The notes: a model not told the origin generated them from the letters alone. Positions 13,440-59,480 are shown, counted from the first letter of the stretch. The stretch is DNA of 64,000 nucleotides from Nannocystis sp. (GCA_016712315.1 JADJRG010000022.1:866522-930521), one strand, 5' to 3'. Made by a program: numbers and translations.

Positions 13440-13450
13440 AGACCTAACGA

Positions 13451-39975: not shown

Positions 39976-41577
39976 ATGCGTATCATCGCCCCCAGCACCC
40001 TCCACCTCGCCCTCTACGGCCTGCTCGCCGCCCCGCTGACCGCCTGTAGCATCGTCGCGGGTGACCAAGCCCAAGGATCCGACGGCGGCGAATCCGCCGG
40101 CTCCGCGAGCGGCGGCGGTGACACCGGCGGCGCCAGCGGCGGCGACGGCGGCCTCAACCCGGGGGTCGGCCAAGGCGGCGCCCAGGACTTCGGCCTCTTC
40201 CGCCAGATCCTCCTCGCCGGCGAGATCCCTGGCCCTGACACCATCGACGACGTCGGCTTCTTCAACGAGCACAAGCTGCTCCTCCCCGCCGCCGACTGCG
40301 GCCACGACGTCTGCCTGCACGGCCTCTTCGGTCAGATGGGCAACATGATCACCGGCTCGAACTGCACCACCGTCTTGCTCGGCATGAACACGCCGATCGA
40401 CCCCGAGACGATCCCCCGGCGCCCGCTCAACCTCGCCCTCGCGATCGACGTCAGCGGCTCCATGCGCGGCGACCCGATCGACTACACCCGCCTCGGCCTC
40501 ACCCAGATGCTCGGCTCCTTGCTCCCTGAGGATCGGATCACCATCGTCGCCTTCAGCGAGTGGGCCGACGTCGTCGCCGACGGCCTCGCAGGCGACGATC
40601 CCGAGCTCCAGGTCGTCATCGAGCAGCTCGACGCTGACGGCGGCACCAACATCTACGACGGCCTCCGCGCCGCCTTTGAGGCCGTCGACGCCGCCGCCGA
40701 CAACGGCATGCAGAACCGCGTCATCCTCCTCTCCGACGGCGTCGCCACCGAAGGGATCACCGCCTCCGCCAAGATCCTGAACATGGCCGCCGCCTACAAC
40801 GCGGCCGGCCTCAACCTCACCACCATCGGCCTCGGCAAGGACTTCGACGTCCAGCTCATGCGCACCCTCGCCGAGGCCGGCAGCGGCGCCTTCTACTTCC
40901 TCGAGGACCCCAAGGCCGTCGCCGAGGTGTTCGTCGAGGAGGTCGAGGCCTTCCTCATCCCGCTCGCGGAGGACGCCTCGATCAATTTTGGCGTCACCGG
41001 CGACTACATCCTCCGCGGCCTCTACGGCACCAAGCTCTTCACCGCCGACGGCCAGGGCGCTGAGGTCGAGATCCCCAGCCTCCAGATCGCCCACCGCAAG
41101 GACGTCGACGACAACGACAAGGGCCGTCGCGGCGGCGGCGGCGCGATCCTCCTCGAGCTCCTACCGGCCCCAGGCGCCGGCGCCGGCGCTCAAGAGGTCG
41201 GCGACCTCCACTTCAGCTACCGCGTCCCTGCCAGCGACGTGATCATCGAGCAAGAGATCGCCGTCACCGCGCCCCTCGGCCCCGGTGAGCCTGGCACCTT
41301 CTTCGCCGACGCCAGCGTCGAGAAGAGCTTCGTCATGCTGAACATCTTCATGGGCTTCAAGATGGCCGCCCTGCGCGCGCAAGGCGGCGACGATCTCGGC
41401 GCGATCAACCTCCTCAACGCGCTCGCCGCGAACGTCCAGATCTGGCTCGAGCAGAACCCGGACGCCGACATCGAGGACGACCTCTTCTACATCGACCTCT
41501 TCCGCACCAACATCCACCAGCGCACCCCGCAAGAGCCCCAGCCGAACCCGCCGCCCGAGCCGTGGCCCTACGACTGA
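39976..41577 (+). CDS. VWA domain lipoprotein
   Basis: Lipobox LTACS. The MIDAS motif is LALAIDVSGSM, and ILLSDG is the second VWA motif. Confidence 0.8.
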   Translation: MRIIAPSTLHLALYGLLAAPLTACSIVAGDQAQGSDGGESAGSASGGGDTGGASGGDGGLNPGVGQGGAQDFGLFRQILLAGEIPGPDTIDDVGFFNEHKLLLPAADCGHDVCLHGLFGQMGNMITGSNCTTVLLGMNTPIDPETIPRRPLNLALAIDVSGSMRGDPIDYTRLGLTQMLGSLLPEDRITIVAFSEWADVVADGLAGDDPELQVVIEQLDADGGTNIYDGLRAAFEAVDAAADNGMQNRVILLSDGVATEGITASAKILNMAAAYNAAGLNLTTIGLGKDFDVQLMRTLAEAGSGAFYFLEDPKAVAEVFVEEVEAFLIPLAEDASINFGVTGDYILRGLYGTKLFTADGQGAEVEIPSLQIAHRKDVDDNDKGRRGGGGAILLELLPAPGAGAGAQEVGDLHFSYRVPASDVIIEQEIAVTAPLGPGEPGTFFADASVEKSFVMLNIFMGFKMAALRAQGGDDLGAINLLNALAANVQIWLEQNPDADIEDDLFYIDLFRTNIHQRTPQEPQPNPPPEPWPYD

Positions 41578-41598
41578 GCCGCCGCTATAGTCGCCGGG

Positions 41599-42345
41599 AT
41601 GCTCGCCCCAGCCAGCGCGACCGAGGAGGCCTACGAGCTCCACCGAGGCGGCGACGACGCCTCCCTCCTGCTCGTCTGCGAGCACGCCTCGCTGCGCCTG
41701 CCGAGCCCGTGGAGCTGGCCAGAGGAGGATCGGTGGCTGCTCGGCACCCATTGGTCCTTTGATCTGGGGGCGGCCGATCTCAGCCGCGGGCTCGCGCGCG
41801 AGATCGGCTGCGCCGCCGTGCTCAGCCGCTTCACCCGCCTGCTCATCGATCCCAACCGCGATCTCGCCGCCCCCACCCTCTTCCGAGTCGAGGCCGAGGG
41901 CCACCCGATCCACCTCAACGCCGCGATCTCCCCCGCCGATCGTGAACGTCGGATCACCGACTACTACACGCCCTACCACGATCAGATCGATCATCGCCTC
42001 CGCGCCGCGCCCGCCGCCGCGCTGCTCTCCGTCCACACCTTCACGCCCGTCTACGACGGTCACGTCCGCGCCGTCGAGATCGGCGTACTCTTCGACGAGC
42101 ACGCCGATCTCGCCCAAGTCTTCGCCCGCGAGCTCCGCCGATGCGGCTGGCGTAGCGCCCTCAACGAGCCCTATTCGGGCCAAGCCGGCTTCGCCTTCTC
42201 GCCCCAGCACCACGCCGCCAATCATCAGCGCCCGTGGCTCGAGATCGAGATCCGCCAGGACATCGCGGTCGATCTTGACCGTCGTCCGGCCCTGATCGCC
42301 GCCCTCACCGCCGCGATCAGGCGCACCTTCGCGAGCGCCGCGTAG
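41599..42345 (+). CDS. N-formylglutamate amidohydrolase (FGase) family protein
   Basis: LLLVCEHAS and the overall length of 248 aa match the FGase/HutG-like zinc amidohydrolase family. Confidence 0.7.
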   Translation: MLAPASATEEAYELHRGGDDASLLLVCEHASLRLPSPWSWPEEDRWLLGTHWSFDLGAADLSRGLAREIGCAAVLSRFTRLLIDPNRDLAAPTLFRVEAEGHPIHLNAAISPADRERRITDYYTPYHDQIDHRLRAAPAAALLSVHTFTPVYDGHVRAVEIGVLFDEHADLAQVFARELRRCGWRSALNEPYSGQAGFAFSPQHHAANHQRPWLEIEIRQDIAVDLDRRPALIAALTAAIRRTFASAA

Positions 42346-42371
42346 GCGCCGCTTTCACCGGCCCCGCCGAT

Positions 42372-42875
42372 GTGTTGGAGTGGACTCAGGAGTGGGGTGA
42401 CGGGAGTATGCAATCGCTTCGAGATACCTTGGGAGACTTCAGCAGCATCGTCTGTTTCAAGGCCGTCGTCGTCGGCGTCGAGGACACGCTCGGCGTCCAG
42501 GCCGCGGGCGTCGCGCTCAAGCGGGCGGGCCGCGAGCGAGGCAAGGCTTTGGCTGCCTCGCTCGGCCTCAGCGTCGACGCCACCACTTTGGATCAGGCCA
42601 CGGCGGCCCTGCGCGCCGCGCTCGGCCCCGAGGGCACGCGCCTCTGCATCGTCGAGTCGATCGAGGAGCGGGGCGACTCGCTCATCGTTCGGCTCAGCGA
42701 GACCATCTGCTCCGCGGGTGAAGCGCAGGGATCACCACGCGAGCTCACCTTCACCATGGGCGCCATCCACGGCGCCGTCGAGGTGCTCACCGGCAGGCGC
42801 CTACGCGCCAAACAGATCGAGTCGGTGCTCCGCGGCGGCGCCCACGACGTGATCGAGCTGATCAGCCTCCTCTGA
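42372..42875 (+). CDS. hypothetical protein, possibly V4R-domain-like
   Basis: About 155-167 aa, with spaced Cys/Gly reminiscent of V4R small-molecule-binding domains. The assignment is weak. Confidence 0.45.
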   Translation: MLEWTQEWGDGSMQSLRDTLGDFSSIVCFKAVVVGVEDTLGVQAAGVALKRAGRERGKALAASLGLSVDATTLDQATAALRAALGPEGTRLCIVESIEERGDSLIVRLSETICSAGEAQGSPRELTFTMGAIHGAVEVLTGRRLRAKQIESVLRGGAHDVIELISLL

Positions 42876-42899
42876 GCTCCGACCGATCTCATGAAGCCC

Positions 42900-43517
42900 T
42901 CAGTAGGGCCGCTCGTGGAACCACAGGTTAAACGCCCACTTCTCGCCGCGCGCGGGGGCGCAGCCTTGGTGATACGTCCGCGGATCGCAGCGCGTCGTCC
43001 CGGGAAAGCAGTTATAAAAAACTAGGAGCCTGCCTCGGCGCGGCCGCACCGCCACACCGAGGCGCGGGAACGCGGTCTCCCCCCCTTGCTCGACCTCACT
43101 CAGGTACGCCAACGCGGTCACCAGCCGTTGCCCGCCGCGCGCGCAGTACAGCCGCCCCTTCTCCGTCGACAGATCATAGGCGTCGAAGTGTGGCCTGTAC
43201 TCTTGGCCAGCCGCGTAGTGGATCACCTGCAGCGGCTCTGCGTGGCCGAGCGGCAGCCCGATCGCCCCCGCGATCCGTGAACAAGCCGCCAGCACCCCCG
43301 CGTCGTGCGAGTGCTTCACCCACGAACGCGAGCTCGTGCGCCCCCCGCTCACCACCCCACGCGCCGCCCCGCTCACCTGCGATCGCCCGAGCGTGGGCGC
43401 CGCCGCCGCGATCACGCGCGCACACTCATCCGCCGACAAAAAATCGTCCCAGCGATGGATCAGCGGCTCCTCGTTCAGTCGGACGCCTCCGTCGAAGTCG
43501 CGGCGCAGCTCCATCAT
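42900..43517 (-). CDS. 2OG-Fe(II) oxygenase, prolyl-4-hydroxylase-like
   Basis: HFDAYD matches the His-x-Asp iron-binding motif, and the downstream His and RLLVFYN resemble the P4Hc/2OG-FeII_Oxy fold. Confidence 0.75.
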   Translation of the reverse strand: MMELRRDFDGGVRLNEEPLIHRWDDFLSADECARVIAAAAPTLGRSQVSGAARGVVSGGRTSSRSWVKHSHDAGVLAACSRIAGAIGLPLGHAEPLQVIHYAAGQEYRPHFDAYDLSTEKGRLYCARGGQRLVTALAYLSEVEQGGETAFPRLGVAVRPRRGRLLVFYNCFPGTTRCDPRTYHQGCAPARGEKWAFNLWFHERPY

Positions 43518-43641
43518 CGATCACGCCCACCAACGCGTGGAGATCGAGCATAGGTCCCTCGCACCGCCCCTCGCAAGGCCCACACGTCACGAGCGACGAG
43601 ACTTCGCCCCATCGCAGCCTCACCCCGCTATCTTCCTCGCC

Positions 43642-45390
43642 GTGACTGAGCGCTCCCTCGCCGCGTTCCTCCGCTGGACCGATCATCTCCCGCGGCTGCG
43701 AGGCGCCCCAGGGCTCGCGCTCGAAGCACGCCTCGCCCTCTGGCGGCGAGCCGCCCGTGAGATCGCCGCCCGCACCGCCCTCGCCCTCGCCCGCGAGGGT
43801 CACCTCGCCGCGCAGCTCGAAGGCGCCTCGCTGCGCCTCGATCTACGCCGAGGTCACCTCACCTTGCCCCTCCTGCGCCGGGGCCAGCTCGGCCTGCACA
43901 CCGCCGATCTCGACGCCCCCCGCGAACCCGCCCTCGATCACCCAGACGCCCTCATCACCAGCCTCACCGAGGATCTCCGCCTCGACCCAGCCACCCACGC
44001 CCGCCTCGCCTTCGAGCTCCGCGACTCCGCCTTCAACCTCGCCCTCATCCACCACAGCGCGGCGCTTCGCGAGCAAGCGCGTAGCAGCGCCCCCTGCCGC
44101 TCGCTCGATCCAGAGGGCCTCGTGATCAGCGGCCACCCATGGCACCCCATGACCCGAGCGCGCCTCGGCCTGCGCGCCGCCGAAGTGCTCCGCCACGCCC
44201 CCGAGCACCTCGCCTGCGGCGACCTCAACTTCCTCGACGTGCAGACCGACCACCTCAACGTTAGTGGCGACGCCCTCTCCATCCTCCACGTTCTCGCCCC
44301 CCCCGCACCGCCTGGTTTTATCCGCCTCCCGGTCCATCCGGCCCAGCTCAAGCGCCTACGTCGCCGCTTCGCCGCCCTCTGGGGCCACGTGATCAAGGAA
44401 GCCTCGATCCGTCCGCTCCCCGCCAGAGCCCTGCTCAGCCTGCGCACCGTCGAGATCGCCGACCCCGCGCGCCCCTACCACATCAAGCTCGCCCTCGACG
44501 TCGTCACCACCAGCGCGCGCCGCACCGTCTCACCGATGAGCGTCGCCAACGGTCCCCCCCTCACCGCGCTCCTCCAGCGGATCCAAGCGCGAGATCACCA
44601 CACCCGGCCCCTCGTGATCCAGGGGGATCGAGGCGGCGCCGGCCTCAGCGGGGCTCGCTACGGCGAAGACGCCGCGCACCTAGGCGTCATCCTCCGAGGC
44701 GACCCGAGGCCCATCGCCCGCGCCCTCGCCCCCGCCGATCACCGAGGCGCACCCGTCGATCTCTGGGTCTGCGCCGCCCTCGGCGAGCGCTCGCCGGGCG
44801 CCACCAGCACCTTTTTGCAGCAGCTCGCCGCCGGCCTCGATCCGCGCCGCTTCCTCCGGCGCTACCTCGATCTACTGCTCCCCCCTGCGCTCCGCCTGCT
44901 CACCGCCCACGGCGTCGCCCTCGAGGCCCACCTCCAGAACACCGTCGCCGTACGCGTCGGCGGCCAGCTCGTCGGCTTCCTCATCCGCGACCTCGGCGGC
45001 CTCCGCGTCGATCGCGCGCGCCTCGCCCGCGCTGGTCATCACATGTCCTTCGCGCCAGGTTCATTCATCGTCACCGACGATCACCTCGAGGTCCGCGACA
45101 AGCTCGTACACGCGCTCTTTCACGCCCACCTCGCCGAGCTCTTCCGCTGGGTCGAGCGCGACCTCGGCGTCGACGCCGCCGAGTCGTGGTCGCTCGCTCG
45201 TCGCCTCGTCGATCGCCTCTACTCCGAGTGGCGCCGCGAACCTGCGCTCACCGCCGCCTGCGACGACGATCACGCCGCCCTGATCGCCCCCGTCGTCCGC
45301 GCCAAGGCGCTCCTCACCATGAGGATCACCGATCGGAGCAGCGACTACAGCTACATCCGCGTCGACAACCCCCTCGCCGGCGCGCGCTGA
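43642..45390 (+). CDS. IucA/IucC-family NRPS-independent siderophore (NIS) synthetase
   Basis: Family motifs are ISGHPWHPMTRARLGL (GHPxHP region) and KLALDVVTTSARRTVSPMSVANGPPLT, plus a C-terminal FhuF-like region. A GTG start at 43642 was chosen, because the upstream part of ORF 43336.. overlaps the divergent oxygenase gene and looks non-coding. Confidence 0.8.
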   Translation: MTERSLAAFLRWTDHLPRLRGAPGLALEARLALWRRAAREIAARTALALAREGHLAAQLEGASLRLDLRRGHLTLPLLRRGQLGLHTADLDAPREPALDHPDALITSLTEDLRLDPATHARLAFELRDSAFNLALIHHSAALREQARSSAPCRSLDPEGLVISGHPWHPMTRARLGLRAAEVLRHAPEHLACGDLNFLDVQTDHLNVSGDALSILHVLAPPAPPGFIRLPVHPAQLKRLRRRFAALWGHVIKEASIRPLPARALLSLRTVEIADPARPYHIKLALDVVTTSARRTVSPMSVANGPPLTALLQRIQARDHHTRPLVIQGDRGGAGLSGARYGEDAAHLGVILRGDPRPIARALAPADHRGAPVDLWVCAALGERSPGATSTFLQQLAAGLDPRRFLRRYLDLLLPPALRLLTAHGVALEAHLQNTVAVRVGGQLVGFLIRDLGGLRVDRARLARAGHHMSFAPGSFIVTDDHLEVRDKLVHALFHAHLAELFRWVERDLGVDAAESWSLARRLVDRLYSEWRREPALTAACDDDHAALIAPVVRAKALLTMRITDRSSDYSYIRVDNPLAGAR

Positions 45391-45417
45391 TCGTCAGCTA
45401 CACTGCCCGGAGTTCTT

Positions 45418-46353
45418 ATGCAGCACAGCGCCCCGTCCCCGCTCGTCTTCGCGATCCCTGAGTACCGAGGCATGCAGGACGCCCTCTGCCGGCGCGGCGG
45501 CTACGAGCCTGGCGAGCTCGAGCTCCGCGTCTTCCCCGACGGCGAGCGCTACCTGCGGATCCTCACCCCTGTCGACGGCCGCGACATCGTGCTGATCGGC
45601 GGCACCATCAACGACGCCGCCACCCTCACCATCTACGACCTCGCCTGCGCGCTCGTGAAGTACGGCGCCCTCCACCTCACCCTCCTGGTCCCGTACTTCG
45701 CCTACGCGACCATGGAGCGGGCCGTACGCCCCGGCGAAGTCGTCACCGCCAAGACCAGGGCCACCCTGCTCTCTGCGATCCCTCCCGCGTGTTATGGCAA
45801 CCGCGTCGTCCTCCTCGATCTCCACAGCGAGGGGATCCCCCACTACTTCGAGGGCGAGCTCACCGCCGTGCACGTCTACGGCAAGCCGATCATCCGCGCC
45901 GCCGCCCGCCGCCTCGGCGGCGACGACTTCGTGCTCGCCTGCACCGACGCTGGCCGCGCCAAGTGGGTCGAATCGCTCGCCAACGACCTCGGCGTCACCC
46001 CGGCCTTCGTCTACAAGCGCCGCCTCAGCGGCAGCGAGACCGCCGTCGCCGCCGTCAACGCCCAGGTCGAAGGTCGCCGCGTCATCATCTACGACGACAT
46101 GATCCGCACCGGCTCCTCCCTCTTGGGCGCCGCCCGGGCCTACCGCGACGCGGGCGCCGCCAGCCTCGCCGTCATCACCACCCACGGCGTCTTCCCCGGC
46201 GACGCCTACGCCACGATCAAGGCCAGCGGCCTCTTCACCGACATCGTCTGCACCGACTCACACCCGCGCGTGCACGCCCTCGCGAGCGACGGCCTCCAGA
46301 TCGAGCCCACCCTCGATCTCTTCCTGCCGCACCTCGGCTACGCCGCGCGCTGA
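45418..46353 (+). CDS. ribose-phosphate pyrophosphokinase (Prs) family protein
   Basis: Two PRTase-type domains are present, and the PRPP-binding loop is [14 protein letters not shown]. The architecture matches PRPP synthetase, but the sequence looks divergent. Confidence 0.8.
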
Positions 46354-46388
46354 GCATCTGTCCCAACGGACAGCACAGTGAGAAAGGC

Positions 46389-46423
46389 GAGAGCCGCCGC
46401 CCCCGGGGGGTGCGACGGCTCTC
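46389..46423. terminator. GC-rich hairpin between convergent genes
   Basis: An 8-bp stem, gagagccg/cggctctc, encloses a cccccgggggg palindrome. A further 6-bp hairpin ctgtcc-caac-ggacag sits just after the prs-like stop. Confidence 0.4.
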
Positions 46424-46444
46424 ATCGGGCCGAGGCCGCGCCGG

Positions 46445-47572
46445 CTACTTCTTGCCCTTCTTCTTGTCCTCCGCGGGCAGCGGCTCGAAGGACGAGGTGA
46501 GCAGCGAGCGGTGCTTCTTCATCGACCCGCAGTCCTTGACCTTCTTATTGTGCTTGTCGAAGGCCTTGCCGCAGCTCGGGTAGAGCCCCTCTGCCTTCCA
46601 CTTCTGCTGGCGGATGTCGTTCAGGCAGTAGGCGCCGTCCGGCGTCCACTCCGCCTCGATCTTCCAGTCGTCGGCGGCGCGCGCGTTGATCTGCGGGGCG
46701 AGGTGATCCCAGATGTCGATCTGGTGCCCCGAGACCGTCCACGGCGTGCCGTCGCCGCAGTAGTCGGCGCGCGCCATCCGCGTGCACGCCTGGTGGTAGT
46801 CGGCGAGGGAGACCTCATCGCAGTCCTTCGACTTCTTCTTCCCCTTCTTGTCCTTGCACTGCTCGGCGTCGGCCCAGGGCCGGTAGCCCCACTGGACGCA
46901 GTGAGCGATCACCGCGTCCGAACAGGCGAGCGTGACCAAGCTCGGATCGTCGATCCGATCGCCCGTGACGTCATCCCACCCGTTGGCGACCGGGATCGCT
47001 GGGACCGCGGCCCCGTAGTCATCGACGCACGGGCTCTGCCACTCGTCATCGCTGCCCTCGAGCCGATACGAGAGCTCGTAGAGCAGCACGTCATCGGTCT
47101 CGGCGTCGGGATCGGGATAGACGTCATCGATCCGCAGCGTGTAGGAGACGAGCGAGTCTTGTCCGCCCTCGGAGACCCGCCCGATCAACCCGAGCTCGCT
47201 GCCCTTCAGGTCGACGCCCGAGCGCACGAGCTCGGCGCCATCGACGACGAAGGCGACCTCAAATTCGCTCCCGTTGAGGCGGAACTCGTTGAGCTTGAAG
47301 TCGTTCAGCTTGAAGTCGTTGAGCCGGAACTCGTTGAGGCGGAACTCGTTGAGCTTGAAGTCGTTCAGCTTGAAGTCGTTCAGCTTGAACTCATTGAGCT
47401 TGAAGTCGTTCAGCCTGAAGTTGTTCAGCCTGAAGCTGTTCAGCCTGAAGTTGTTCAGCCTGAAGTTGTTGACTTCTACGGTTCGGAACGCGCCTTCACC
47501 GTCGACCGGCCCGACGCCCGAGTAGCAGCCGCTCACCACCACCGCCAGCAGAACCATTGAAAATCCGCGCAT
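46445..47572 (-). CDS. lipoprotein with 13-14 tandem pentapeptide repeats (NxF[RK]L) and a C-terminal Cys/Lys-rich domain
   Basis: Signal peptide MRGFSMVLLAVVVSGCYS from ATG 47570-47572. It is followed by NNFRLNNFRLNSFRLNNFRLNDFKLNEFKLNDFKLNDFKLNEFRLNEFRLNDFKLNDFKLNEFRL and then a domain with 10 Cys. Confidence 0.75.
   Translation of the reverse strand: MRGFSMVLLAVVVSGCYSGVGPVDGEGAFRTVEVNNFRLNNFRLNSFRLNNFRLNDFKLNEFKLNDFKLNDFKLNEFRLNEFRLNDFKLNDFKLNEFRLNGSEFEVAFVVDGAELVRSGVDLKGSELGLIGRVSEGGQDSLVSYTLRIDDVYPDPDAETDDVLLYELSYRLEGSDDEWQSPCVDDYGAAVPAIPVANGWDDVTGDRIDDPSLVTLACSDAVIAHCVQWGYRPWADAEQCKDKKGKKKSKDCDEVSLADYHQACTRMARADYCGDGTPWTVSGHQIDIWDHLAPQINARAADDWKIEAEWTPDGAYCLNDIRQQKWKAEGLYPSCGKAFDKHNKKVKDCGSMKKHRSLLTSSFEPLPAEDKKKGKK
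47262..47472. repeat. 15-bp tandem repeat array, about 14 copies, with a 41-nt higher-order duplication
   Basis: The unit is gtt(g/c)ag(c/g)(c/t)(t/g)gaa(g/c)t(c/t). Positions 47281-47321 and 47341-47381 are identical. The array encodes the pentapeptide repeats. Confidence 0.9.
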
Positions 47573-47650
47573 ACCCGCCCTCTCTCCCAACCAGACGCTC
47601 TCATCCTTGATCAGGTCCCAATAGAGTGCAAGCAAAAAATTAGCGGTACA

Positions 47651-50600
47651 CTAATGCGATAGTGTCGCACATACCCGCACCCCGACGAACTCCGAGCGAT
47701 AACCCGCGTCGAGGGTCTCTCGGGACATCACCCGCATCTGCAGCGCGTCCATCGCGAACCCCCCGCCGCGAGCCACGTAGCTCGACGGCTCGAGCGACGA
47801 CGAGACCCACTCGAACGCGTTCCCAGCCATGTCCTGGACCCCATACGGGCTCGTCGACGCAGGGTACGCGCCGACCTCATCGAGGCCCATCAGGCGCGGA
47901 TCTTGGCCATAGGTCCGGTCGAAATTCGCCTCATTCGGGGCGACGGTGTTCCCATGTGGGTAGAAGCGGGAGTCGGCCCCACGAGCGGCTCGCTCCCACT
48001 CATAGTCCGTACAAAGACGCGCCCCTGGGAGCCGCCCGCTACCGTCCAGCCAGCCGACGTACGCGAGCGCATCGACGGCGGTGATCCCGACGACGGGGTA
48101 TCGCTCCCACACCCCCGGTGTCAAATGACCCCCACCCGGATATGTGAACAATTGCCCGCTCGCGACCTCGTACGGCGCGTCACGGTCCCAAGAGAGCACC
48201 CACGCGCCGGGCCCCTCGCGGCGCAGGGTCCGCGGCATATGCTTCTGGCGCAGCTCCTCGTCTGCTCCCTCGAGGAACTCAATATAATCGGCGAAGGTCG
48301 CCTCATGCGTCGCGATCAAGTAGCTCCCGGTGGAGACTTGATGGAGCGGCACCGCGTTCATGAAGCTGCGCCGCAGATCGGGGTCTCCCGCGCCTCCGAA
48401 CAAGAACCTACCCGCTGGGATGTATGTATATCCCGGCGGAATATCATCGGTCTTGCGCATCGTGACATCGACCGGGAGCCGCTCGTCTCGCTCGACCAAT
48501 ACGGGCAGCTTTAGGTCCGCGTATCCCTCGCTTGTGACAGTCAACAAATAGGATCCTGGATCGACCATCACGGGCTCTAGCGCGCGAACGACGCCTAGAT
48601 CGCGCATCTCCGCCAACCTCGCCTTGCCTCCTTCATCAAACACATAGGCCGCGATCGCCACACGCGCCGCAGGCGGTGTGACCGTGAGGTAGAGGTGCGC
48701 CGCCCCCTTCAGTCGCGCGATCCTGGTCCCCTCGCGGTCATAGAGCGCTAACCGCGCGACCAGCTCATCCCGCGACACACCGCCGTCGAACGCCGCGCCC
48801 TTCTCCAGATGCAGCACCCGCTCAAGCAGGACATCCGCCAAGAACATCCGGATGTCCTCGCGACTATTATCAAGGCTCAACGCCGTCTCCGCCGCCTGGG
48901 AGGCCTCCGCGAATTCACGCGCCGCGACCGCACGCTCCGCCTGCGCCTTGGCCCACAGCTCCTCACCTTGTGCCACCGCCTGGCTATCAAACCACTGGAG
49001 CGCCGCGGCGCTCTGCTGCTGAGCGCTGCGCGCGGACACCTCTGCGTCACCGAGGCGCCGCTGGGCCTCGCGAAAGCTCGCGTCCACACGCTCGCGCAGC
49101 GCCCGCTGCCCTTGCACCCACAGCCCCCCATACGTCGACAGCAGCGCCAGCGGCACCGCGACGATCAACGCCCGCCGCAGCCGCCGCGCCCGCGTCGCCT
49201 CACGCGCGCTCACGACCAGGAACTCCGACTCGCGCGGCCGCAGCCCTGCGTGCTCGATCGTCCCGGCCTCTGCGACCTGGCTCGCGCTCCACAGCCCCAC
49301 CTGTCCGCGGCCGAGTCGCTCCCACTCGCTCGCCGCCGCCTCCAGCCGGTGCAGGACCGCCCGCGCCTCCTTCTCCTCCTCGAGCCAGCCCGCGAGCTGC
49401 GCCCAGCCGCCCACAAGCGCCTCATGCGCGATCTCGTAGACCATCCGCTCGCCGGCCTCTTTGACCACCAGCAGCCGCCCACGCACCAACGCGTCGAGCG
49501 CCGCCTTCGACGCCTCCCCTGCGGCCGCCAGCTCGTCCAACGTCAACGACGCCCGCGTGTTGTCCAGCGTCACCAGGCGCATCAACAAGCGCCGCGCCGC
49601 CGCCCGCTGCGCCGGCAGCAGCCCCGCCAGCACCCCGTCCGCGTGGCGAGCGAGCGCCCCCGTCACCCCGCCGATCTTCCGCAGCTCCGCCGTCGAGATC
49701 ACGGACGTCGACGTGTCGCGGCTCTCCCACAGCTCCGCCAGCGCGAACTGCAAGAGCGGCAGCGATCCCTTCACCCCCGCCTCGACCAGCTCATCGACCA
49801 GCTCATCGCTCTCAAACGCGACCCCGTGCGCCTGCGCTGGCCCGGCGATCGCCTCCCGCGCCCCCTCCGGCGACAGCGGCCGCAGCAGGAAGATCCCCCG
49901 CGTCACCTCATCACCGAGCCCTGGCACCGTCGCCACGCGGGTCAAGAAGTCCCCGCGCACCGTCGCCATCACCTTCAGCCCCGGGATCCCGGCGAGCAGC
50001 CGCACCACCAACGGGCCGATGAGCGCCACCTCCGCCGGCTCCGCGATCGTCACGAACTCCTCGAACTGGTCGATGAAGATCATGCAGCCCCCGGCCTCGC
50101 CGAGCTGCTTCCGCAGCGCCCGCACCAGCGCCTCCGGCTCGCTCTTCAGCAGCGTCGACACCTCCTCCTCGCCGAGCCCGAAGCCCCGCGCCACCACCGC
50201 GACGAACGACTGCCGCGGGTAACGCCCCGGCGTCATGATCACGGTGCGCCACGTCTTGCCAGGGTCGAGGTTCCCCTCGTTCACCATCGGCACCACGCCT
50301 GCGCGGCACAGCGACGACTTGCCGACCCCTGAGTCGCCCGCGACCACCACGAACGAGTCCGCGCGCAGACGCTCGACCACCGCGCGGATCTCAGCCGAGC
50401 GGCCGAAGAACAGCGAGCGGTGCTCCGCCTCGAACGCCTGCAGCCCGCGGTACGGGTTCCCGGTCGGGATCCCCGGCCCCCCGCGCCGCTGCGGCGCCGC
50501 CACGACCTCGAGCGCGCTGCGCAGCTCCTCCGCCGAGGCGAAGCGCTGGTACGGGTCTCGCTCGAGGCAACGATCGATGATCCCCGCCAGGCGCGCGTCC

Positions 50601-51583
50601 ACACCTGGCGCGAGGGACAGCAGCGGCAGCGGCTCCTTCTCCTGCACCAGCATCGCCAGGTCGAACGGAGAGTCCGCGTCGTGCGGCGGCTTACCGCAGC
50701 AGAGGATGTACATCAGCACGCCGAGCGCATACACGTCAGAGCGCCGCGACGCCGGATCAGCCAGCCACAGCTCCGGCGCCATGTAGTGAGGCGTGCCCAT
50801 CACCGTGCCTTGCCGGGTGATCGACGCCGCCCCCCCGCTCCACCCGTCCTTGAAGCGCGGGCTCTCGTCGACGCGGCGCTGCACCTTCGGCGTCGGCGCG
50901 TTGCCGGCCACCGGCTCGAGCTTCGCCGTGTCCGCGAGCCGCTGCACGACCATCTGGCGGGCGTTGTTCGCCGCCCGCATCACCAGGTCCTGCCTCGTCT
51001 CCGGGACGATCCCCCGCTGCGTCGACGAAGCAGACGACGACGCGATCGTCCGGTCACCTGGCACATCGACCAGCTTCGCCAGGCCGAAGTCCAGCAGCTT
51101 CACCTGCCCGAACTCGTCGATCAGCGCGTTCGAGAGCTTGATGTCGCGGTGCAGCACCCCTTGCCGGTGAGCCGCCCCAAGCCCGCGCGCCAGCCCGATC
51201 CCGATCTCCAGCACCTTCGCCCACGGCAGCGGCAGCTCCAGGTCCCCGAGGCTCTGCCCGCGGATGTACTCCGAGACCAGATACAGCCGCCCCTGGATCT
51301 CCCCCACCCGGTAGATCCCCATCACGTTCGGGTGCTGAATCCGCGCGACCGCCCGCGCCTCCACCAAGAAGCGCTCGCGCTCGACCGGGTCGGGCCGAAA
51401 CGACCCCAAGAACTTCACCGCGACCGGCCGGTCGAGCACCAGATCCTGGGCGAGGAAGACCTGCCCCATGCTGCCGCGGCCGAGCGGCCGGACGATCCGG
51501 TACTCATCAAACTCGCCGGGGGGCGTCCACGTCGCCTCTTCAAGCACCCGCGGCCCTCCTCGGCGCGCGTGGATCGCCAGCAC
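47651..51583 (-). CDS. Ser/Thr protein kinase fused to STAND (NACHT-like) NTPase and a C-terminal formylglycine-generating-enzyme (FGE-sulfatase) domain
   Basis: Kinase motifs HRDIKLSNAL and DFGLA. The P-loop is VVVAGDSGVGKSSL. The C-terminal 300 aa carry FGE-sulfatase signatures (ARGGGFAMD, YRSEFVGVRVC). Confidence 0.85.
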   Translation of the reverse strand: MLAIHARRGGPRVLEEATWTPPGEFDEYRIVRPLGRGSMGQVFLAQDLVLDRPVAVKFLGSFRPDPVERERFLVEARAVARIQHPNVMGIYRVGEIQGRLYLVSEYIRGQSLGDLELPLPWAKVLEIGIGLARGLGAAHRQGVLHRDIKLSNALIDEFGQVKLLDFGLAKLVDVPGDRTIASSSASSTQRGIVPETRQDLVMRAANNARQMVVQRLADTAKLEPVAGNAPTPKVQRRVDESPRFKDGWSGGAASITRQGTVMGTPHYMAPELWLADPASRRSDVYALGVLMYILCCGKPPHDADSPFDLAMLVQEKEPLPLLSLAPGVDARLAGIIDRCLERDPYQRFASAEELRSALEVVAAPQRRGGPGIPTGNPYRGLQAFEAEHRSLFFGRSAEIRAVVERLRADSFVVVAGDSGVGKSSLCRAGVVPMVNEGNLDPGKTWRTVIMTPGRYPRQSFVAVVARGFGLGEEEVSTLLKSEPEALVRALRKQLGEAGGCMIFIDQFEEFVTIAEPAEVALIGPLVVRLLAGIPGLKVMATVRGDFLTRVATVPGLGDEVTRGIFLLRPLSPEGAREAIAGPAQAHGVAFESDELVDELVEAGVKGSLPLLQFALAELWESRDTSTSVISTAELRKIGGVTGALARHADGVLAGLLPAQRAAARRLLMRLVTLDNTRASLTLDELAAAGEASKAALDALVRGRLLVVKEAGERMVYEIAHEALVGGWAQLAGWLEEEKEARAVLHRLEAAASEWERLGRGQVGLWSASQVAEAGTIEHAGLRPRESEFLVVSAREATRARRLRRALIVAVPLALLSTYGGLWVQGQRALRERVDASFREAQRRLGDAEVSARSAQQQSAAALQWFDSQAVAQGEELWAKAQAERAVAAREFAEASQAAETALSLDNSREDIRMFLADVLLERVLHLEKGAAFDGGVSRDELVARLALYDREGTRIARLKGAAHLYLTVTPPAARVAIAAYVFDEGGKARLAEMRDLGVVRALEPVMVDPGSYLLTVTSEGYADLKLPVLVERDERLPVDVTMRKTDDIPPGYTYIPAGRFLFGGAGDPDLRRSFMNAVPLHQVSTGSYLIATHEATFADYIEFLEGADEELRQKHMPRTLRREGPGAWVLSWDRDAPYEVASGQLFTYPGGGHLTPGVWERYPVVGITAVDALAYVGWLDGSGRLPGARLCTDYEWERAARGADSRFYPHGNTVAPNEANFDRTYGQDPRLMGLDEVGAYPASTSPYGVQDMAGNAFEWVSSSLEPSSYVARGGGFAMDALQMRVMSRETLDAGYRSEFVGVRVCATLSH

Positions 51584-51731
51584 TCCGGCCCGCGCGACGC
51601 ACCTGCGTGGAGTTCAGCACCCTCAGAGCCCTGGCGACAGACGACAACACTGCGATCTTGCCCAGCTTTGCACAGCCCTTCACAGCGCGGCAAGCGACCC
51701 CGACCGCGGCCGCCAGCGTACACTCTCGCCC

Positions 51732-52706
51732 ATGCAGACGCGCACGCTCGCCGGCTATGAGCACGTCTATGAGCTCGAGTGCGCGGGCAGCCGCGCCTTC
51801 ATCGCCATCCACGCCGCCCTCCGCGGCCGCGCCTTCGGAGGCGTCCGGATCCGCGCCTATGCCAGCGACGAGCACGCCCTCACCGACGCCCTCGCGCTCG
51901 CCGAGGCGATGACCCGCAAGGTCGTGCTCGCCGGCATCGACGGCGGCGGCGCCAAGTCCGTGCTGCGACTCCCGCCCCCGCATCGCCGCGCCGCAGCGAT
52001 CCACCAGCTCGGCCGCTTCATCGACTCCTTGGGCGGCCGCTACCAGTGCGGCGGCGACTACGGCTTCACCGCCGCGGACGAGGCTGTCCTCCGCGCCGCC
52101 ACGCGCCACGTCGCCTGCGGCGATCTCGCCGAGGCGACCGCCCGCTCCGTCGAGCTCGCGATCTTCGCCGCCGCGGACCCGCGCGTCGTCGCCCTCCAGG
52201 GCCTCGGCGCGGTCGGTCGCCCGCTCGCCCGCCGCCTCCTCGCCCGCGGCGTCCGGGTCATCGCCGCCGACCCTACCTGGCCCGAAGACCTTGTCCCTGG
52301 GGACACCCTGCAACGCGTCGATCCTGCCGCGATCTACGGCGTCGACTGCGACGTCTTCGCCCCCTGCGCGCACGGCGGCGTGCTCGACGCGTCGACGATA
52401 CCGCGCCTGCGCGCCGCCCTCGTCTGCGGCGCCGCCAACAACCCCTTCGCCGCCGCCGACGACGTCGACCGCCTCAACGCCCGCGGCGTCGCCTACATCC
52501 CCGACGTCATCGCCAACGCGGGCGCCACCATCGTCGGCGCCTCCAACGCCCTCGACGAAGAGGCCCACATCGACCGTCGCTTCGCCGCGATCCCCGCGCT
52601 CATCCACGATCTCCTCGATCGCTCCCGCAGCGAGCGCCGCTCCACCCACTGGATCGCCCACGAGCTCGCCGACCAGCGGATCGCCGCGCTGCGCCGCCCC
52701 GCCTAG
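51732..52706 (+). CDS. Glu/Leu/Phe/Val dehydrogenase family protein (leucine-dehydrogenase-like)
   Basis: The Gly-rich catalytic region is LAGIDGGGAKSV and there is a Rossmann segment (LQGLGAVGRPLARRL). The start is ATG 51732. Confidence 0.8.
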   Translation: MQTRTLAGYEHVYELECAGSRAFIAIHAALRGRAFGGVRIRAYASDEHALTDALALAEAMTRKVVLAGIDGGGAKSVLRLPPPHRRAAAIHQLGRFIDSLGGRYQCGGDYGFTAADEAVLRAATRHVACGDLAEATARSVELAIFAAADPRVVALQGLGAVGRPLARRLLARGVRVIAADPTWPEDLVPGDTLQRVDPAAIYGVDCDVFAPCAHGGVLDASTIPRLRAALVCGAANNPFAAADDVDRLNARGVAYIPDVIANAGATIVGASNALDEEAHIDRRFAAIPALIHDLLDRSRSERRSTHWIAHELADQRIAALRRPA

Positions 52707-53252: not shown

Positions 53253-54356
53253 CTAACCCGAGTTCACCGCTCGCTGGTCATCCGCCGCCCCGATCGCCGC
53301 GCAAGGACCCGGCGCCCCCGGCAACGACAGGCAATACGCGACGAACGCCTCAAACACCGGCCGCGGCGCGCCCACCGTCGGCAGCGCGTGGTAGTGCAGC
53401 GCAGGCAGCGCGTTCACCTCGAGGATCGCCGCCTCCCGCCAAGCCTCCGCGCCACCTCGCGGCGCCCGCACAAACGAGGCCAGCGGCCCGCGCAGATCCA
53501 CCCCGCCCACGTCCACCCCCAAGCGAGCGCACGCCGCCTCCGCGACCTCGAACCATGCACGATCGATCGCGTCGCTACGATCGATCACCTCCGCCTCCTC
53601 GCTCGTGATCTCGATCGATGCGCCGGCCGGCAGCGGCTCCTCCAGATCGAGCCCCAGCGCCTCGAGGTGCGCCGCCATCGCCTCCTCCGCCTCGATCACG
53701 TCCATCGCCACCAGCGCCGGCGCGGCCCACGACCCCCGCCGAGGATCCTCATTCAACGCCGCGATCGCCGCCGCCGCGCTCGTGACACCGTCCCCGCGCA
53801 GCAGCGGCCGCACGATCTCCGCCGCCGCCACGCAGCGCCCGCCGATCACCGTCAGCCGCACGTTCGTCCCCTCCAGGTGCGGCTCCAGCAGCGCCTCCTC
53901 GTCGCGGTCGATCGCCTGAGCCCGCGAGATCGCCCGCGCAAGCCCCTCCATCTCCCTGATCCCCGGCGTCACGCCGACCCCGCGGTTCCCCCAGTTCGGC
54001 TTCACCACCACCGCCCCAAAGCGCCGCAAGAAGCCCTGCGCGGCCGCTCCGCGCGGATCATCACCTTCATCCAAGAGCAGGTCTGGAGGGACAGGTAGGC
54101 CGATCGCCGCCAGCAGCTCCCTGCTCACCTTCTTGTTGTTCGACAGCGTCTGCGCCACCTGCGTCAAGAACGGCGAGCGCGTCTTCGAGATGATCACCGA
54201 GCGCCCCTCCCCACGCAGCCGCAAGAAGAAGTCCGTGCGCGCCTGGCTCAGCGGCTCCGCCTTCGCCCCCAGCCGCGCCGCCGCCTGCATGATCAGCAGG
54301 TTCGTCCGGCTCCACCGCCGCGCGCGCGCCCCCTCGTCCTCGTGCTCGGCGCTCAT
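53253..54356 (-). CDS. ATP-grasp ligase, cyanophycin-synthetase-N-terminal / RimK-like
   Basis: The segment SKTRSPFLTQVAQTLSNNKKVSRELLAAIGLPVPP...FGAVVVKPNWGNRGVGV parallels the CphA ATP-grasp region (...KPLDGNHGRGV). There is no Mur-ligase part. It is 1 nt from the redoxin start, and its own start overlaps speE by 4 nt. Confidence 0.7.
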   Translation of the reverse strand: MSAEHEDEGARARRWSRTNLLIMQAAARLGAKAEPLSQARTDFFLRLRGEGRSVIISKTRSPFLTQVAQTLSNNKKVSRELLAAIGLPVPPDLLLDEGDDPRGAAAQGFLRRFGAVVVKPNWGNRGVGVTPGIREMEGLARAISRAQAIDRDEEALLEPHLEGTNVRLTVIGGRCVAAAEIVRPLLRGDGVTSAAAAIAALNEDPRRGSWAAPALVAMDVIEAEEAMAAHLEALGLDLEEPLPAGASIEITSEEAEVIDRSDAIDRAWFEVAEAACARLGVDVGGVDLRGPLASFVRAPRGGAEAWREAAILEVNALPALHYHALPTVGAPRPVFEAFVAYCLSLPGAPGPCAAIGAADDQRAVNSG

Positions 54357-55261
54357 AACGAGGGCAACGTCAACGACGCCATCGCCTCGGCGCCGGTGAT
54401 CACCTTCCCTGGCTCTTCGAGCAGCTCCGCCAGCAGCGGCGGGATCGTCAACGCCGCCTCATGGGCGATCCGCGAGTACACCCGCAGCCCCGTCAACCGC
54501 CGGATCCTCGCCTCGAGATCCGCGGGCATCGCCACGATCGGCGCGCAGCTCGCCAGCGTGAACGCCCACAGGCAGTGAAAGGACGGCACCATCGCCAGCA
54601 GCACCCGCACGTGCGGGAACACCGAGGCCAACGTCGATCGCACCGTCCGCAGCGCGCTCAGGTCGACCGGGTCCGCCTCCCCCGACTGCACCACCAAGAT
54701 CCCGTCTTCCGCCATCACCCGCCGCACCTGCTCAAAGAACGGCGCGCTCCACAAGTGCAGCGAAGGCCCCTCCTCCACCGGATCTGTCAGATCGGCGATC
54801 ACCACATCCCAAGCCCCATCCGCCGAGCCCGCCAGCGTCGCCATAAAATCCTCCGTGCGCGACTCGACCCGCGGATCCTCAAACGCCCCTGCGCTCCACC
54901 CTGGCAGGTGCTCGCGGCACAGCGCCACCACCTCCGCGTCGACGTCCACCGCCACCACCGACTCGATCGTCGGGTGCCTTAGCACCTCACGCAGCGTCGC
55001 TCCTTCGCCCGTGCCGCCGATCAGCACACGCCGAGGCGCCCCGTGGATCACCAGCGCCGGGTGGATCAACAGCTCGTGATACATCGCCTCATCCGCGGCC
55101 GTCGACTGGACGTGCCCGTCCAGGAACAGCGCGCGCCCGTAGCCGGGCGTATCCGCGATGATCACCTCTTGAAACGGCGTCTCACGGCGGACGATCAGCC
55201 GCTCCACCTCGATCTCGATCGCCACCCCGCCGTACGACGGCTCCTTCACGAAGATCGGCAC
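54353..55261 (-). CDS. speE: spermidine synthase-like aminopropyltransferase
   Basis: VLIGGTGEGATLREV...VVAVDVD...VIADLTDP matches the SpeE SAM and polyamine sites. There is an N-terminal tetramerisation-like region. Confidence 0.85.
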   Translation of the reverse strand: MPIFVKEPSYGGVAIEIEVERLIVRRETPFQEVIIADTPGYGRALFLDGHVQSTAADEAMYHELLIHPALVIHGAPRRVLIGGTGEGATLREVLRHPTIESVVAVDVDAEVVALCREHLPGWSAGAFEDPRVESRTEDFMATLAGSADGAWDVVIADLTDPVEEGPSLHLWSAPFFEQVRRVMAEDGILVVQSGEADPVDLSALRTVRSTLASVFPHVRVLLAMVPSFHCLWAFTLASCAPIVAMPADLEARIRRLTGLRVYSRIAHEAALTIPPLLAELLEEPGKVITGAEAMASLTLPSL

Positions 55262-55831
55262 CTACACACGCTCCTCTCGTCGCCTCTTGGCTACCACGTC
55301 TCCCTCGCGGCGCGCTCGCCCAGGCCGCCTCGAGATCACGAAGCCGCTCGCGAGCAGCCCCAGCAGCGCGAGCCCCGTCATCGCGCTCAGCGCGCTCCCG
55401 CTCGCCCCCAGCGCCTCGCCCGTGTGGATCGCGAACAGCCACCCGGTCAGCCCGCGCCGCTTGGACGGCGCCGCCTCGATCACCGCCAGCGATCCGTCGA
55501 GCAGCACCCGCGTCTCCGCCTCATCATCGAGCCACACTTGATACGGCTCCTCTGTCCCTGAGGGCAGGGTGATATCCGTCACCGCAGCCCCGCCCGCCGC
55601 CGCCGACGCCGCCGCCGCCAGCGCGTCCAAGCTCGGCCTCGTGCTCGTCGTCGCCGTCACCCGCGGCAGCGGCGTCCGCAGCGCCTCGCGGAAGATCAGC
55701 GCGATCCCGCTCACCGTCACCGTGGCGATCAGCAGCGCTGAAGCCAGCCCGATCCACCGGTGCCACCGCCGCCACGCCCGCCCGCTCATAGCCACTGCCC
55801 CACCCGCCACGGCGTACGCATCCGCGCCCAC
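55262..55831 (-). CDS. PepSY-associated TM helix protein
   Basis: The motif WRRWHRWIGL is followed by a TM helix, a periplasmic segment and a second TM helix. This type of protein is commonly encoded next to TonB-dependent siderophore receptors. The true start may be at MSGRAW (about 55789). Confidence 0.65.
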   Translation of the reverse strand: MGADAYAVAGGAVAMSGRAWRRWHRWIGLASALLIATVTVSGIALIFREALRTPLPRVTATTSTRPSLDALAAAASAAAGGAAVTDITLPSGTEEPYQVWLDDEAETRVLLDGSLAVIEAAPSKRRGLTGWLFAIHTGEALGASGSALSAMTGLALLGLLASGFVISRRPGRARREGDVVAKRRREERV

Positions 55832-58254: not shown

Positions 58255-58256
58255 GG

Positions 58257-59444
58257 CTACGGCTCGACCACGACGCGGGTCGCCCCGCGCAGGCGCAGGC
58301 TCTCGATCGGATCGTCGAAGAGCGGCGAGAGATCGTCGTGCACCACCACCGACCAGACATCCGGCTGCTCCGGCGTCGGCTCGATCACCCGGTACACCAG
58401 CCCCAGCGGATCGATCCCATAAAGGACCCCATCGACCCGCGCCAGCCCGTCGATGTCGCGGCCCGCCAGCAGCCCGTCGATCACCACCCCCGTCGACGCA
58501 GGGGCCGCCCCAGGCGCCGCCATATCGACGTGGAACAGCGCATTACGATCCACCGGCATGATCGCCGGATCCTCCGCCCGCACCGCCGCCAGCAGCCGCC
58601 CTTGCGGGTCCTCCGTCAGATCGCCCGCGACCCCCACACGATCCTCAAACAGCGCCTCCACTTCGCAGAGCGGGGCGCACGCGTAGTACTTCGGGTCCAA
58701 CGTGCGGTCGTTCGGGAACACGCAGTGCGACGGCGCCTCGAGGAACGAGCTCGGGATCGAAAAGACCCCTCCCCGCGCGTCGAAGCCGTTGCCCGCCTTA
58801 CCCGCCGAACCGACCACCAACGTGTCACCAACGAAGCCCAAGCCGCTGAGCATCTGCCGCCAGTAGCACGCGTCCGTAGCCGCGTCTGAGACCGGCCCAG
58901 GCATGAACGTATAGCGCTCGACCGCCACGTGGTTGTCGGTGCGTCGCCAGTCCGGCACCGTCAACGACACCAGCCCCCATTCATCGTTCAACGCGTCGTA
59001 GCTGAGCCCCCACAGCCCGCGCTGCGGGTGCCACGCCAGGTCACGCACGCCGAAGCGCTCCAGCGAGCCGTCGCCGACCGACAGCGCGCCCATCGAATCG
59101 TCCAGCCACAGGTGCCCGACCCGCGCCAGCCGACAGCCCGACCCGCCGTCTTCACACTCACGGCGCGGATCGTAGAGGTACAAACCAGCGCCGATGTAGC
59201 GCCCCTCGCCGTCGATCGCGAAGTTCGCGGTGAAATTCGAGCGCGGCCCGCTCAGCTTGGCGTTCACCAGCAAGATCGCCTCGCCGCTGGTCACCTGCTC
59301 CGAAGAACAGCCCGGACAGACCTCGATCTCCGCCGGCAGGCCGTCCCCTGCGAAGCCCGTCGGCGGCTCGACCGTCAGCTCGACGCAGCCACCGAGCAAC
59401 ATCACGACACCGGCCCATCGATGAAAACTGAAAATCACTTTCAT
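58257..59444 (-). CDS. hypothetical lipoprotein, first gene of the receptor operon
   Basis: The signal peptide MKVIFSFHRWAGVVMLLGGC starts at ATG 59442-59444. The rest is a beta-rich domain. The gene ends 2 nt before the receptor gene. Confidence 0.6.
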   Translation of the reverse strand: MKVIFSFHRWAGVVMLLGGCVELTVEPPTGFAGDGLPAEIEVCPGCSSEQVTSGEAILLVNAKLSGPRSNFTANFAIDGEGRYIGAGLYLYDPRRECEDGGSGCRLARVGHLWLDDSMGALSVGDGSLERFGVRDLAWHPQRGLWGLSYDALNDEWGLVSLTVPDWRRTDNHVAVERYTFMPGPVSDAATDACYWRQMLSGLGFVGDTLVVGSAGKAGNGFDARGGVFSIPSSFLEAPSHCVFPNDRTLDPKYYACAPLCEVEALFEDRVGVAGDLTEDPQGRLLAAVRAEDPAIMPVDRNALFHVDMAAPGAAPASTGVVIDGLLAGRDIDGLARVDGVLYGIDPLGLVYRVIEPTPEQPDVWSVVVHDDLSPLFDDPIESLRLRGATRVVVEP

Positions 59445-59480
59445 TTTCTTGAGAGTGGTTATCACTGGAAACCGCCTCGG

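Follow-up and report, generated by a model that had tools for sequence, protein, structure and literature searches.

An orphan IucA/IucC-type synthetase of the Nannocystaceae and its junction with a Prs-like gene of a subfamily tied to NAD salvage

We describe here a synthetase gene in a 64-kb stretch of DNA from Nannocystis sp. (GCA_016712315.1, JADJRG010000022.1:866522-930521; hereafter the window, with positions counted from its first nucleotide), which encodes a divergent enzyme of the IucA/IucC family, the ligases of nonribosomal peptide synthetase-independent siderophore (NIS) biosynthesis, and which is followed 27 nt downstream by prsL, a gene for a homolog of phosphoribosyl pyrophosphate (PRPP) synthase (Prs). 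An earlier interpretation made from the DNA alone, which we call the sequence-only reading, had described these two genes and three upstream neighbors as a non-canonical neighborhood and had suggested that the ligase could make a non-siderophore amide, possibly a ribosylated or phosphoribosylated one. Our comparison of related loci indicates that the locus holds an uncharacterised enzyme of a known kind and not a new five-gene pathway: the synthetase falls in an orphan clade that is confined to Nannocystaceae and lies in no standard siderophore cluster among the loci examined, its junction with prsL is restricted to one branch of that clade, and the upstream genes are bystanders. The explanation we favor, tentatively, is that the synthetase would be a stand-alone NIS ligase making a citrate/polyamine-type chelator, with PrsL co-transcribed but not sharing its pathway.

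The window has a G+C content of ~70%, and candidate open reading frames were chosen across it by codon-position G+C and then annotated with Pfam and NCBIfam profiles. The two genes at the center of this analysis are:

43642-45390, plus strand: orphan IucA/IucC-type NIS synthetase with a C-terminal FhuF-like domain (PF04183, PF06276), 582 aa, GTG start
45418-46353, plus strand: Prs-like diphosphokinase, PrsL (Pribosyltran_N, Pribosyl_synth and Pribosyltran matches)

Both domains of the synthetase score well above their Pfam cut-offs in the profile searches that the sequence-only reading had proposed (IucA_IucC, 115.4 bits against 25; FhuF, 96.8 bits against 25.2). We take the GTG at 43642 as the true start; the resulting length equals that of a 582-aa homolog (P0001), which is 96% identical. 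The sequence-only reading had reported that the usually conserved Lys of the GHPxHPxxKxR region was replaced by Thr, a claim that proved to be a register error or miscount: the Lys position in GHPWHPMTRAR is occupied by Arg, and among 118 homologs this position is Lys in 79 and Arg in 39. The remaining signatures are intact, as GHPWHP (GHPxHP), SLRT (SxRT), K282, TTSxRR, ExHxQN and RD do not vary among 26 clade members (residues H165, H168, R268, T269, K282, T289-S291, R294, E428, H430, Q432, N433, R449 and D450), and the ATP-binding and catalytic motifs align with those of AcsD and AsbB. An AlphaFold (AF2) model built from the clade alignment has a mean confidence (pLDDT) of 90.8 and shows a full-length NIS-synthetase fold; all of the 50 Protein Data Bank (PDB) matches listed are NIS synthetases aligned over their full length, with template modeling (TM) scores of 0.69-0.77 at 17-22% identity, and include IucC, AsbB, DesD, DfoC, AlcC, AcsD and IucA; for IucC, AsbB, DesD and AcsD the scores are 0.70-0.77. 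Because the motifs are invariant and the predicted fold is complete, we regard the protein as a divergent but intact NIS-type ligase that is predicted to be catalytically competent.

Profile comparison with PDB sequences ranks AsbB best (E = 3e-28), followed by AcsD (9e-25), and the best NCBIfam matches are FslA (77.6 bits) and SbnF, both far below cut-offs. The type C enzymes (AsbB, IucC and DesD) stand barely above the type A enzymes (AcsD and IucA), and these profile and fold margins are too small to type the synthetase as A or C. The appearance of AsbB, which uses spermidine, and FslA as top profile matches nevertheless hints at the substrates.

One genome per species was scanned, which yielded 37 loci of this clade, at 36-55% identity, from Nannocystis, Enhygromyxa, Plesiocystis and metagenome-assembled genomes (MAGs) of Nannocystaceae, Myxococcales and Polyangia. 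The other loci listed, from Bacillaceae, haloarchaea and actinomycetes, are 26-36% identical, and many of these have two adjacent IucA/C genes, as classical siderophore clusters do. In a neighbor-joining tree the orphan clade stands apart from the 26-36% relatives and divides into two branches, one of which, comprising Enhygromyxa, Plesiocystis and others (16 loci), has no prsL nearby. The statement of the sequence-only reading that the usual NIS partners are missing held up: no pyridoxal phosphate (PLP)-dependent decarboxylase, N-monooxygenase or siderophore acyltransferase occurs among the annotated open reading frames of the whole window, and no hydroxamate-pathway family is among the recurrent neighbors in the 37 related loci, as far as these are annotated. 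In Enhygromyxa and Plesiocystis, a "siderophore" biosynthetic gene cluster called by antiSMASH around one conserved IucA/IucC gene has been noted previously, and the same strains carry a separate cluster with two IucA/IucC-like genes and an N-monooxygenase (PMC6226438). The orphan gene was therefore seen in that work on marine myxobacteria but not studied.

Two features of individual loci in this clade are recorded here in their own right. Five Enhygromyxa and Plesiocystis loci (L011, L013, L018, L019 and L035) have a conserved same-strand trio of genes 3' of the synthetase (~11.7-20 kb, in locus coordinates), encoding a ~1090-aa Tubulin_2 (tubulin-like) protein and proteins of ~880 aa and ~770 aa. 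In Nannocystaceae bacterium ST9 (L032), a second, partial IucA/C-like stretch at 13105-13993, 1.5 kb 3' of the orphan synthetase, may be a decayed tandem duplicate.

The synthetase gene lies directly 5' of prsL in 27 loci (21 from genomes and 6 from metagenomes), where it occupies the slot held by pncB elsewhere, and the 27-nt spacing given by the sequence-only reading was confirmed by measurement. Junction gaps are mostly between -4 and +40 nt, and 10 loci show a 4-nt ATGA overlap. Nannocystis loci have the order IucA/C-prsL-nadE, and the group to which the window belongs has lost the adjacency of nadE; prsL in the window is flanked by the synthetase gene upstream and by a convergent gene for an ADYC-domain protein downstream. 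The two genes likely form a co-transcribed two-gene operon. The junction is limited to one of the two IucA/C branches, and the PrsL sequences linked to IucA/C group as one clade whose branching agrees with that of IucA/C, so that a single ancestral joining event suffices to explain it. A related MAG carries prsL-nadE without the synthetase. No fusion of IucA/C with Prs was found among the homologs, the long ones (P0107, 930 aa, and others) having spurious N-terminal extensions. Biochemical coupling of the synthetase with PrsL is possible but unsupported.

PrsL is a divergent Prs homolog, as the sequence-only reading had recognized, and its divergence follows a pattern. It scores above the general TIGR01251 model (167.7 bits, cut-off 113) and below every Prs equivalog cut-off, is ~27-30% identical to solved Prs enzymes, and yields an AF2 model (pLDDT 88.9) with TM scores of 0.84-0.87 to PRPS1, PRPS2 and E. 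coli Prs. With the class I PRPP synthases of E. coli, B. subtilis and human it shares the fold, the FxDGE and DLH motifs, the KRR catalytic loop, the DD pair and the T-G-x-S 5-phosphate loop; it differs in having YATMER for YARQDR (TMER for RQDR) and DDMIRTG(G/S)S for DDMIDTGGT, in which the third Asp has become Arg (DDMIRTGSS in the window). These changes are invariant in the 120 best homologs and in a 22-sequence alignment (61-85% identity). Together with the other invariant motifs (YATMER, DLH, KRR and YDDMIRTG), they delimit what the sequences indicate to be a large, sharply defined and tightly conserved Prs subfamily, whose signature the window protein carries and to whose members it is 55-85% identical. 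In class I PRPP synthase, the Arg and Gln of the RQDR motif contact ATP. The altered ATP-site residues of PrsL may bear on its donor specificity and regulation. The gene beside the synthetase is thus a non-canonical prs, and what the sequence-only reading had named as its refutation, a canonical housekeeping prs here combined with a standard siderophore cluster around the synthetase elsewhere, was not observed; the absence of a canonical prs from the related loci examined is uninformative, since these loci are not whole genomes.

To place this subfamily in its usual context, we used 80 metagenome loci with G+C contents of 30-75%, fetched with subfamily-specific peptides (PrsL loci include L084 and L099-L162). 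PncB was detected in ~44 of the 80 and NadE in ~48, with pncB nearly always immediately 5' and nadE immediately 3' of prsL and with NrtR and PncA often following, so that the dominant order is pncB-prsL-nadE-nrtR-pncA. The PrsL-associated PncB is a canonical nicotinate phosphoribosyltransferase (NAPRTase; 590 bits against a cut-off of 469), and the other operon genes score as nicotinamide adenine dinucleotide (NAD) synthase, an ADP-ribose (ADPR)-responsive repressor and nicotinamidase; NadD is absent from the genes identified in these operons. Roughly 30 of about 100 PrsL genes stand alone, and PncB and IucA/C are the only recurrent 5' partners of PrsL that we found. Additional prs paralogs in NrtR regulons (prs-nadV) were noted in 2008, with their role left open (Rodionov et al., PMC2330246). 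Those genes resemble prsL in being extra prs genes inside NAD-salvage operons under the ADPR-responsive NrtR; they differ in that the partners of prsL are pncB and nadE instead of nadV, and the window itself has no adjacent NAD gene. The likeness of PrsL to the Shewanella-type prs of NrtR regulons is drawn here from operon context. Read most simply, PrsL would be a variant of PRPP synthase devoted, as a rule, to NAD salvage. This ordinary, NAD-related context explains the presence of a prs gene beside the synthetase more simply than a ribosylated or phosphoribosylated amide product does, and nothing positive was found for such a product.

Another candidate role for PrsL was considered and weakened, namely that of an ADP-ribose diphosphokinase like phage Adps, in a "deamido NARP1" route in which ADPR pyrophosphate and nicotinate would yield nicotinic acid adenine dinucleotide (NaAD) for NadE. 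Phage Adps, the diphosphokinase of NARP1, likewise uses a Prs-like fold in NAD metabolism. The idea lost ground because the PncB associated with PrsL is a canonical NAPRTase, because PrsL is at most 31% identical to phage Prs-like and Adps proteins, and because its PP-loop differs from that of Adps (DDMIRTGSS versus DDICDxAAS); the equivalents of Adps Arg87 and Asp216 are Thr and Arg in PrsL (PMC13586617). No Namat- or Nampt-like match occurs among the annotated open reading frames of the window; no search aimed at Namat was made in the related loci.

The likely partners of the synthetase may be sought in a tightly packed module on the other side of the prsL-to-AhpC block, 7.9 kb from the synthetase in the window:

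53253-59465, minus strand: five-gene module, tightly packed, delimited by family matches and gene spacing
58257-59465, minus strand: first gene of the module, a 402-aa protein without a family match
55786-58254, minus strand: FecA-like TonB-dependent receptor (324 bits to the FecA model, below cut-off)
55262-55831, minus strand: PepSY-like protein (family match)
54353-55261, minus strand: polyamine aminopropyltransferase SpeE (spermidine synthase; 237 bits)
53253-54356, minus strand: cyanophycin-synthetase-like ATP-grasp ligase (family match)
59424-59550, unstranded: cluster of Fur-box-like sites 5' of the module, with 14/19 and 13/19 matches to GATAATGATAATCATTATC

Neighboring genes of the module overlap or lie 0-2 nt apart. 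Family searches returned no match for the first gene, nor for a 420-aa gene that lies between SpeE and the receptor in sister loci. The module abuts the 3' end of the synthetase gene, in convergent orientation, in seven loci of the branch without Prs (L012, L022, L023, L026, L030, L031 and L039). Four related loci cover the region 5' of the homologous first gene, and Fur-like boxes occur there in three of them (L030, L031 and L039, but not L022). Because the module abuts the synthetase in the Prs-less branch and lies 7.9 kb from it in the window, the linkage spans both sides of the clade root. The module genes are accordingly likely candidate partners of the synthetase, and their linkage accords with an NIS enzyme coupling a carboxylate to a polyamine. 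As an assemblage kept in several Nannocystaceae, the module is unusual in bringing together genes for uptake, for polyamine synthesis and for a ligase.

The gene content and enzyme family together suggest how such a system might work. By the chemistry of its family, the synthetase would bind Mg-ATP and adenylate a carboxylate, for which a carboxyl of citrate or of a citryl group is the likeliest candidate, with release of pyrophosphate, after which the acyl group would be passed to an amine, probably a di- or polyamine. In this respect it would draw on primary metabolites, as the stand-alone rhizoferrin or petrobactin-type enzymes do, and would therefore need no decarboxylase, N-monooxygenase or acyltransferase. 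Its partners would be the FecA-like receptor, PepSY protein, spermidine synthase and ATP-grasp ligase of the nearby module preceded by Fur-like boxes. PrsL, which in NAD-salvage operons would most simply supply PRPP, would have joined the synthetase once, in the ancestor of one branch, the two genes being co-transcribed yet serving separate pathways. What the analysis establishes directly are the families, motifs, folds, phyletic range and gene contexts; the substrates, the link to iron and the absence of biochemical coupling to Prs we infer.

NIS clusters without hydroxamate genes, of the rhizoferrin and petrobactin types, are already known, and they provide the closest comparisons. The petrobactin synthetases AsbA and AsbB of Bacillus anthracis share the IucA_IucC plus FhuF architecture and the ATP-binding and catalytic motifs, and AsbB is the best PDB profile match and a top fold match (TM 0.76); the amine substrate of AsbA and AsbB is spermidine, and the module associated with the synthetase here contains a spermidine-synthase gene. 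Identity to AsbA and AsbB is however only ~19%, there is one synthetase gene instead of two, genes of the asbC-F type for aryl capping are absent, and the synthetase lies outside a dedicated operon and shows no sign of iron regulation in our consensus scan. The rhizoferrin synthetases FslA and LbtA are single NIS enzymes that join citrate to a diamine without hydroxamate-forming enzymes, a gene content matched here; FslA is also the best NCBIfam match, and a FecA-like, citrate-type receptor lies nearby. The differences are that the score falls far below the FslA cut-off of 1000 and that no decarboxylase or major facilitator superfamily (MFS) exporter is adjacent. With the aerobactin and desferrioxamine clusters (IucABCD and DesABCD) the synthetase shares its superfamily and fold, whereas their N-monooxygenase, acyltransferase and PLP decarboxylase are absent from the annotated genes of the window and of the related loci.

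The genes upstream of the synthetase, which the sequence-only reading had listed in its neighborhood, are present as it described, being identified by Pfam matches or, for the V4R-like protein, by the naming of its homologs:

41599-42345, plus strand: FGase-family amidohydrolase (PF05013, 113 bits); bystander
42372-42875 (frame; likely start 42408), plus strand: COG1719/V4R-type small protein, identified from homolog names; bystander
42900-43517, minus strand: 2-oxoglutarate (2OG)-Fe(II) oxygenase of the 2OG-FeII_Oxy_3 family (PF13640, 56 bits); bystander
43518-43641, unstranded: divergent intergenic region between the 2OG oxygenase and synthetase genes

Promoter and terminator consensus scans of positions 41000-47800 gave no match, and no sigma-70-like site was found in the intergenic region. 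Searches of the 37 related loci by tblastn with the FGase, V4R-like, oxygenase, VWA and 406-aa proteins of the window found none of them within 10 kb of the synthetase. Even the closest relatives, which share the downstream ADYC, kinase-nSTAND1-FGE and dehydrogenase genes, lack the upstream genes of the window and have in their place genes for a DUF2330 protein, a TetR regulator and an unrelated 167-171-aa protein. The comparison of genomic contexts thereby divides the proposed neighborhood, in that the junction of IucA/C with Prs is kept in one branch and the upstream genes are never kept. The V4R-like protein matches no Pfam family at E < 0.1 and no NCBIfam family, but belongs to a very conserved family of ~155 aa, with homologs 60-95% identical, that carries the name "predicted hydrocarbon binding protein" at JGI and "(contains V4R domain)" in UniRef; the two other loci examined place this family in unrelated contexts. 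In one locus from Pseudanabaena biceps (L166, 6001-7670), a V4R/COG1719 homolog (60% identical) lies directly 5' of genes for a Roadblock/LC7 protein and a Ras-like small GTPase, a context that suggests a role of this family in GTPase signaling and not in metabolism.

Further observations concern the DNA downstream of prsL and the window as a whole. The ADYC-domain gene (46445-47635, minus strand) adjoins a gene (47651-51583, minus strand) for a 1310-aa Ser/Thr kinase-nSTAND1 NTPase-PEGA-FGE-sulfatase protein, and this pair is kept 3' of prsL in the closest relatives (L002-L006). A gene of the Glu/Leu/Phe/Val-dehydrogenase family at 51468-52706 (plus strand) keeps the same position in the closest relatives, and its best NCBIfam match is a ScyB-type tryptophan dehydrogenase (166 bits, below cut-off). 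The strand analyzed is strongly and uniformly asymmetric over positions 1-64000 (C 41.6%, G 28.9%), with a GC skew of -0.18 in each quarter of the window regardless of gene orientation, compared with -0.02 to -0.125 in related loci.

Several of our own results weigh against a stand-alone, chelator-making ligase. The substrate assignment draws on weak similarity, at 18-22% identity to solved structures; a Fur-box consensus scan 5' of the synthetase in 34 loci gave a mean best score of 10.2/19, equal to the background of 10.19; the synthetase is convergent with the module, has its own promoter region and does not share a transcription unit with it in any locus; the module does not occur within 10 kb of the synthetase in Nannocystis; and no exporter was seen near the synthetase, which in the window adjoins no gene for siderophore precursor supply, export or uptake. 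The junction with prsL is moreover very tight (overlapping in 10 and mostly under 40 nt in 27 loci) and has outlasted the change of all other neighbors, which could reflect functional coupling. If so, the synthetase and PrsL, with NadE in Nannocystis, would form a real pathway in which the IucA/C ligase replaced the NAPRTase in the pncB slot and made an amide from a pyridine or other carboxylate, formed from or feeding a PRPP- or NAD-related intermediate, in a non-siderophore role for an NIS enzyme. The position immediately 5' of prsL, the overlaps of a translational-coupling type, the retention of the junction over the deep A+B branch while other neighbors differ and the lack of a Fur-like box 5' of the synthetase all speak for such coupling, as does the fact that amide formation proceeds through an acyl-adenylate in NIS enzymes and in NadE alike. 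We nonetheless consider this pathway quite unlikely, since the 16 loci of the other branch have the synthetase without prsL nearby, the partners of PrsL outside Nannocystaceae are PncB, NadE, NrtR and PncA and never IucA/C, PrsL occurs with NadE and without IucA/C in a related MAG, no IucA/C-Prs fusion was found, one ancestral junction inherited by descent explains the pattern, and the pathway would be without precedent. Its specific form, in which an NIS ligase took the place of the NAPRTase at the head of a pncB-prsL-nadE operon of one Nannocystaceae branch and, together with PrsL and with NadE where it is present, builds a PRPP- or NAD-related amide, is in our estimate improbable.

An explanation without either iron or NAD would treat PrsL as the organism's main PRPP synthase, of a bacterial non-class-I type, and the product of the synthetase as something unrelated to both, for instance an osmolyte-like or cell-surface amide, with the neighborhood signals being historical accidents. 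It gains from the ~30 of 100 PrsL genes that stand alone, by housekeeping genes such as metK and panC, from the retention by PrsL of the catalytic Lys-Arg loop, DLH, DD, 5-phosphate loop and PRPS fold, from the family-wide conservation of the synthetase like that of a core gene among variable neighbors, and from the missing Fur box at the synthetase. Most PrsL loci, however, are in an operon with NrtR, which would be unlikely for a sole source of PRPP; the synteny between the synthetase and the iron-type module extends to both branches of the clade; and, to our knowledge, all characterised enzymes with IucA/IucC and FhuF domains make siderophores. We therefore regard this explanation as unlikely, while giving it some weight. 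A five-gene cluster based on the sequence-only reading, in which FGase, V4R-like protein, 2OG oxygenase, IucA/IucC ligase and Prs would together make a hydroxylated, deformylated and (phospho)ribosylated amide, can appeal to the physical adjacency of its five genes and to the absence of canonical partners from the window, but it is contradicted by the absence of all three upstream genes from the vicinity of the synthetase in the related loci, the closest relatives included, by the unrelated contexts of the V4R-like family and by the orientation of the oxygenase gene, which converges on the V4R gene and diverges from that of the synthetase; we judge it highly improbable.

These comparisons remove two false leads, the membership of the FGase, V4R-like and oxygenase genes in a cluster and the Lys-to-Thr change, and they assign the unusual Prs to a large subfamily that has sharp limits and is linked to NAD salvage. 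Should the synthetase after all act together with PrsL on a PRPP- or NAD-related amide, it would be the first IucA/IucC enzyme with a non-siderophore role linked to a nucleotide cofactor and would extend NIS chemistry beyond siderophores. If instead the stand-alone ligase that we favor is correct, the Nannocystaceae would possess a family-wide NIS enzyme that may make a polyamine/citrate chelator in association with an iron-regulated module of SpeE, an ATP-grasp ligase and a FecA-like receptor, and the locus would offer a tractable lead to a new myxobacterial siderophore.

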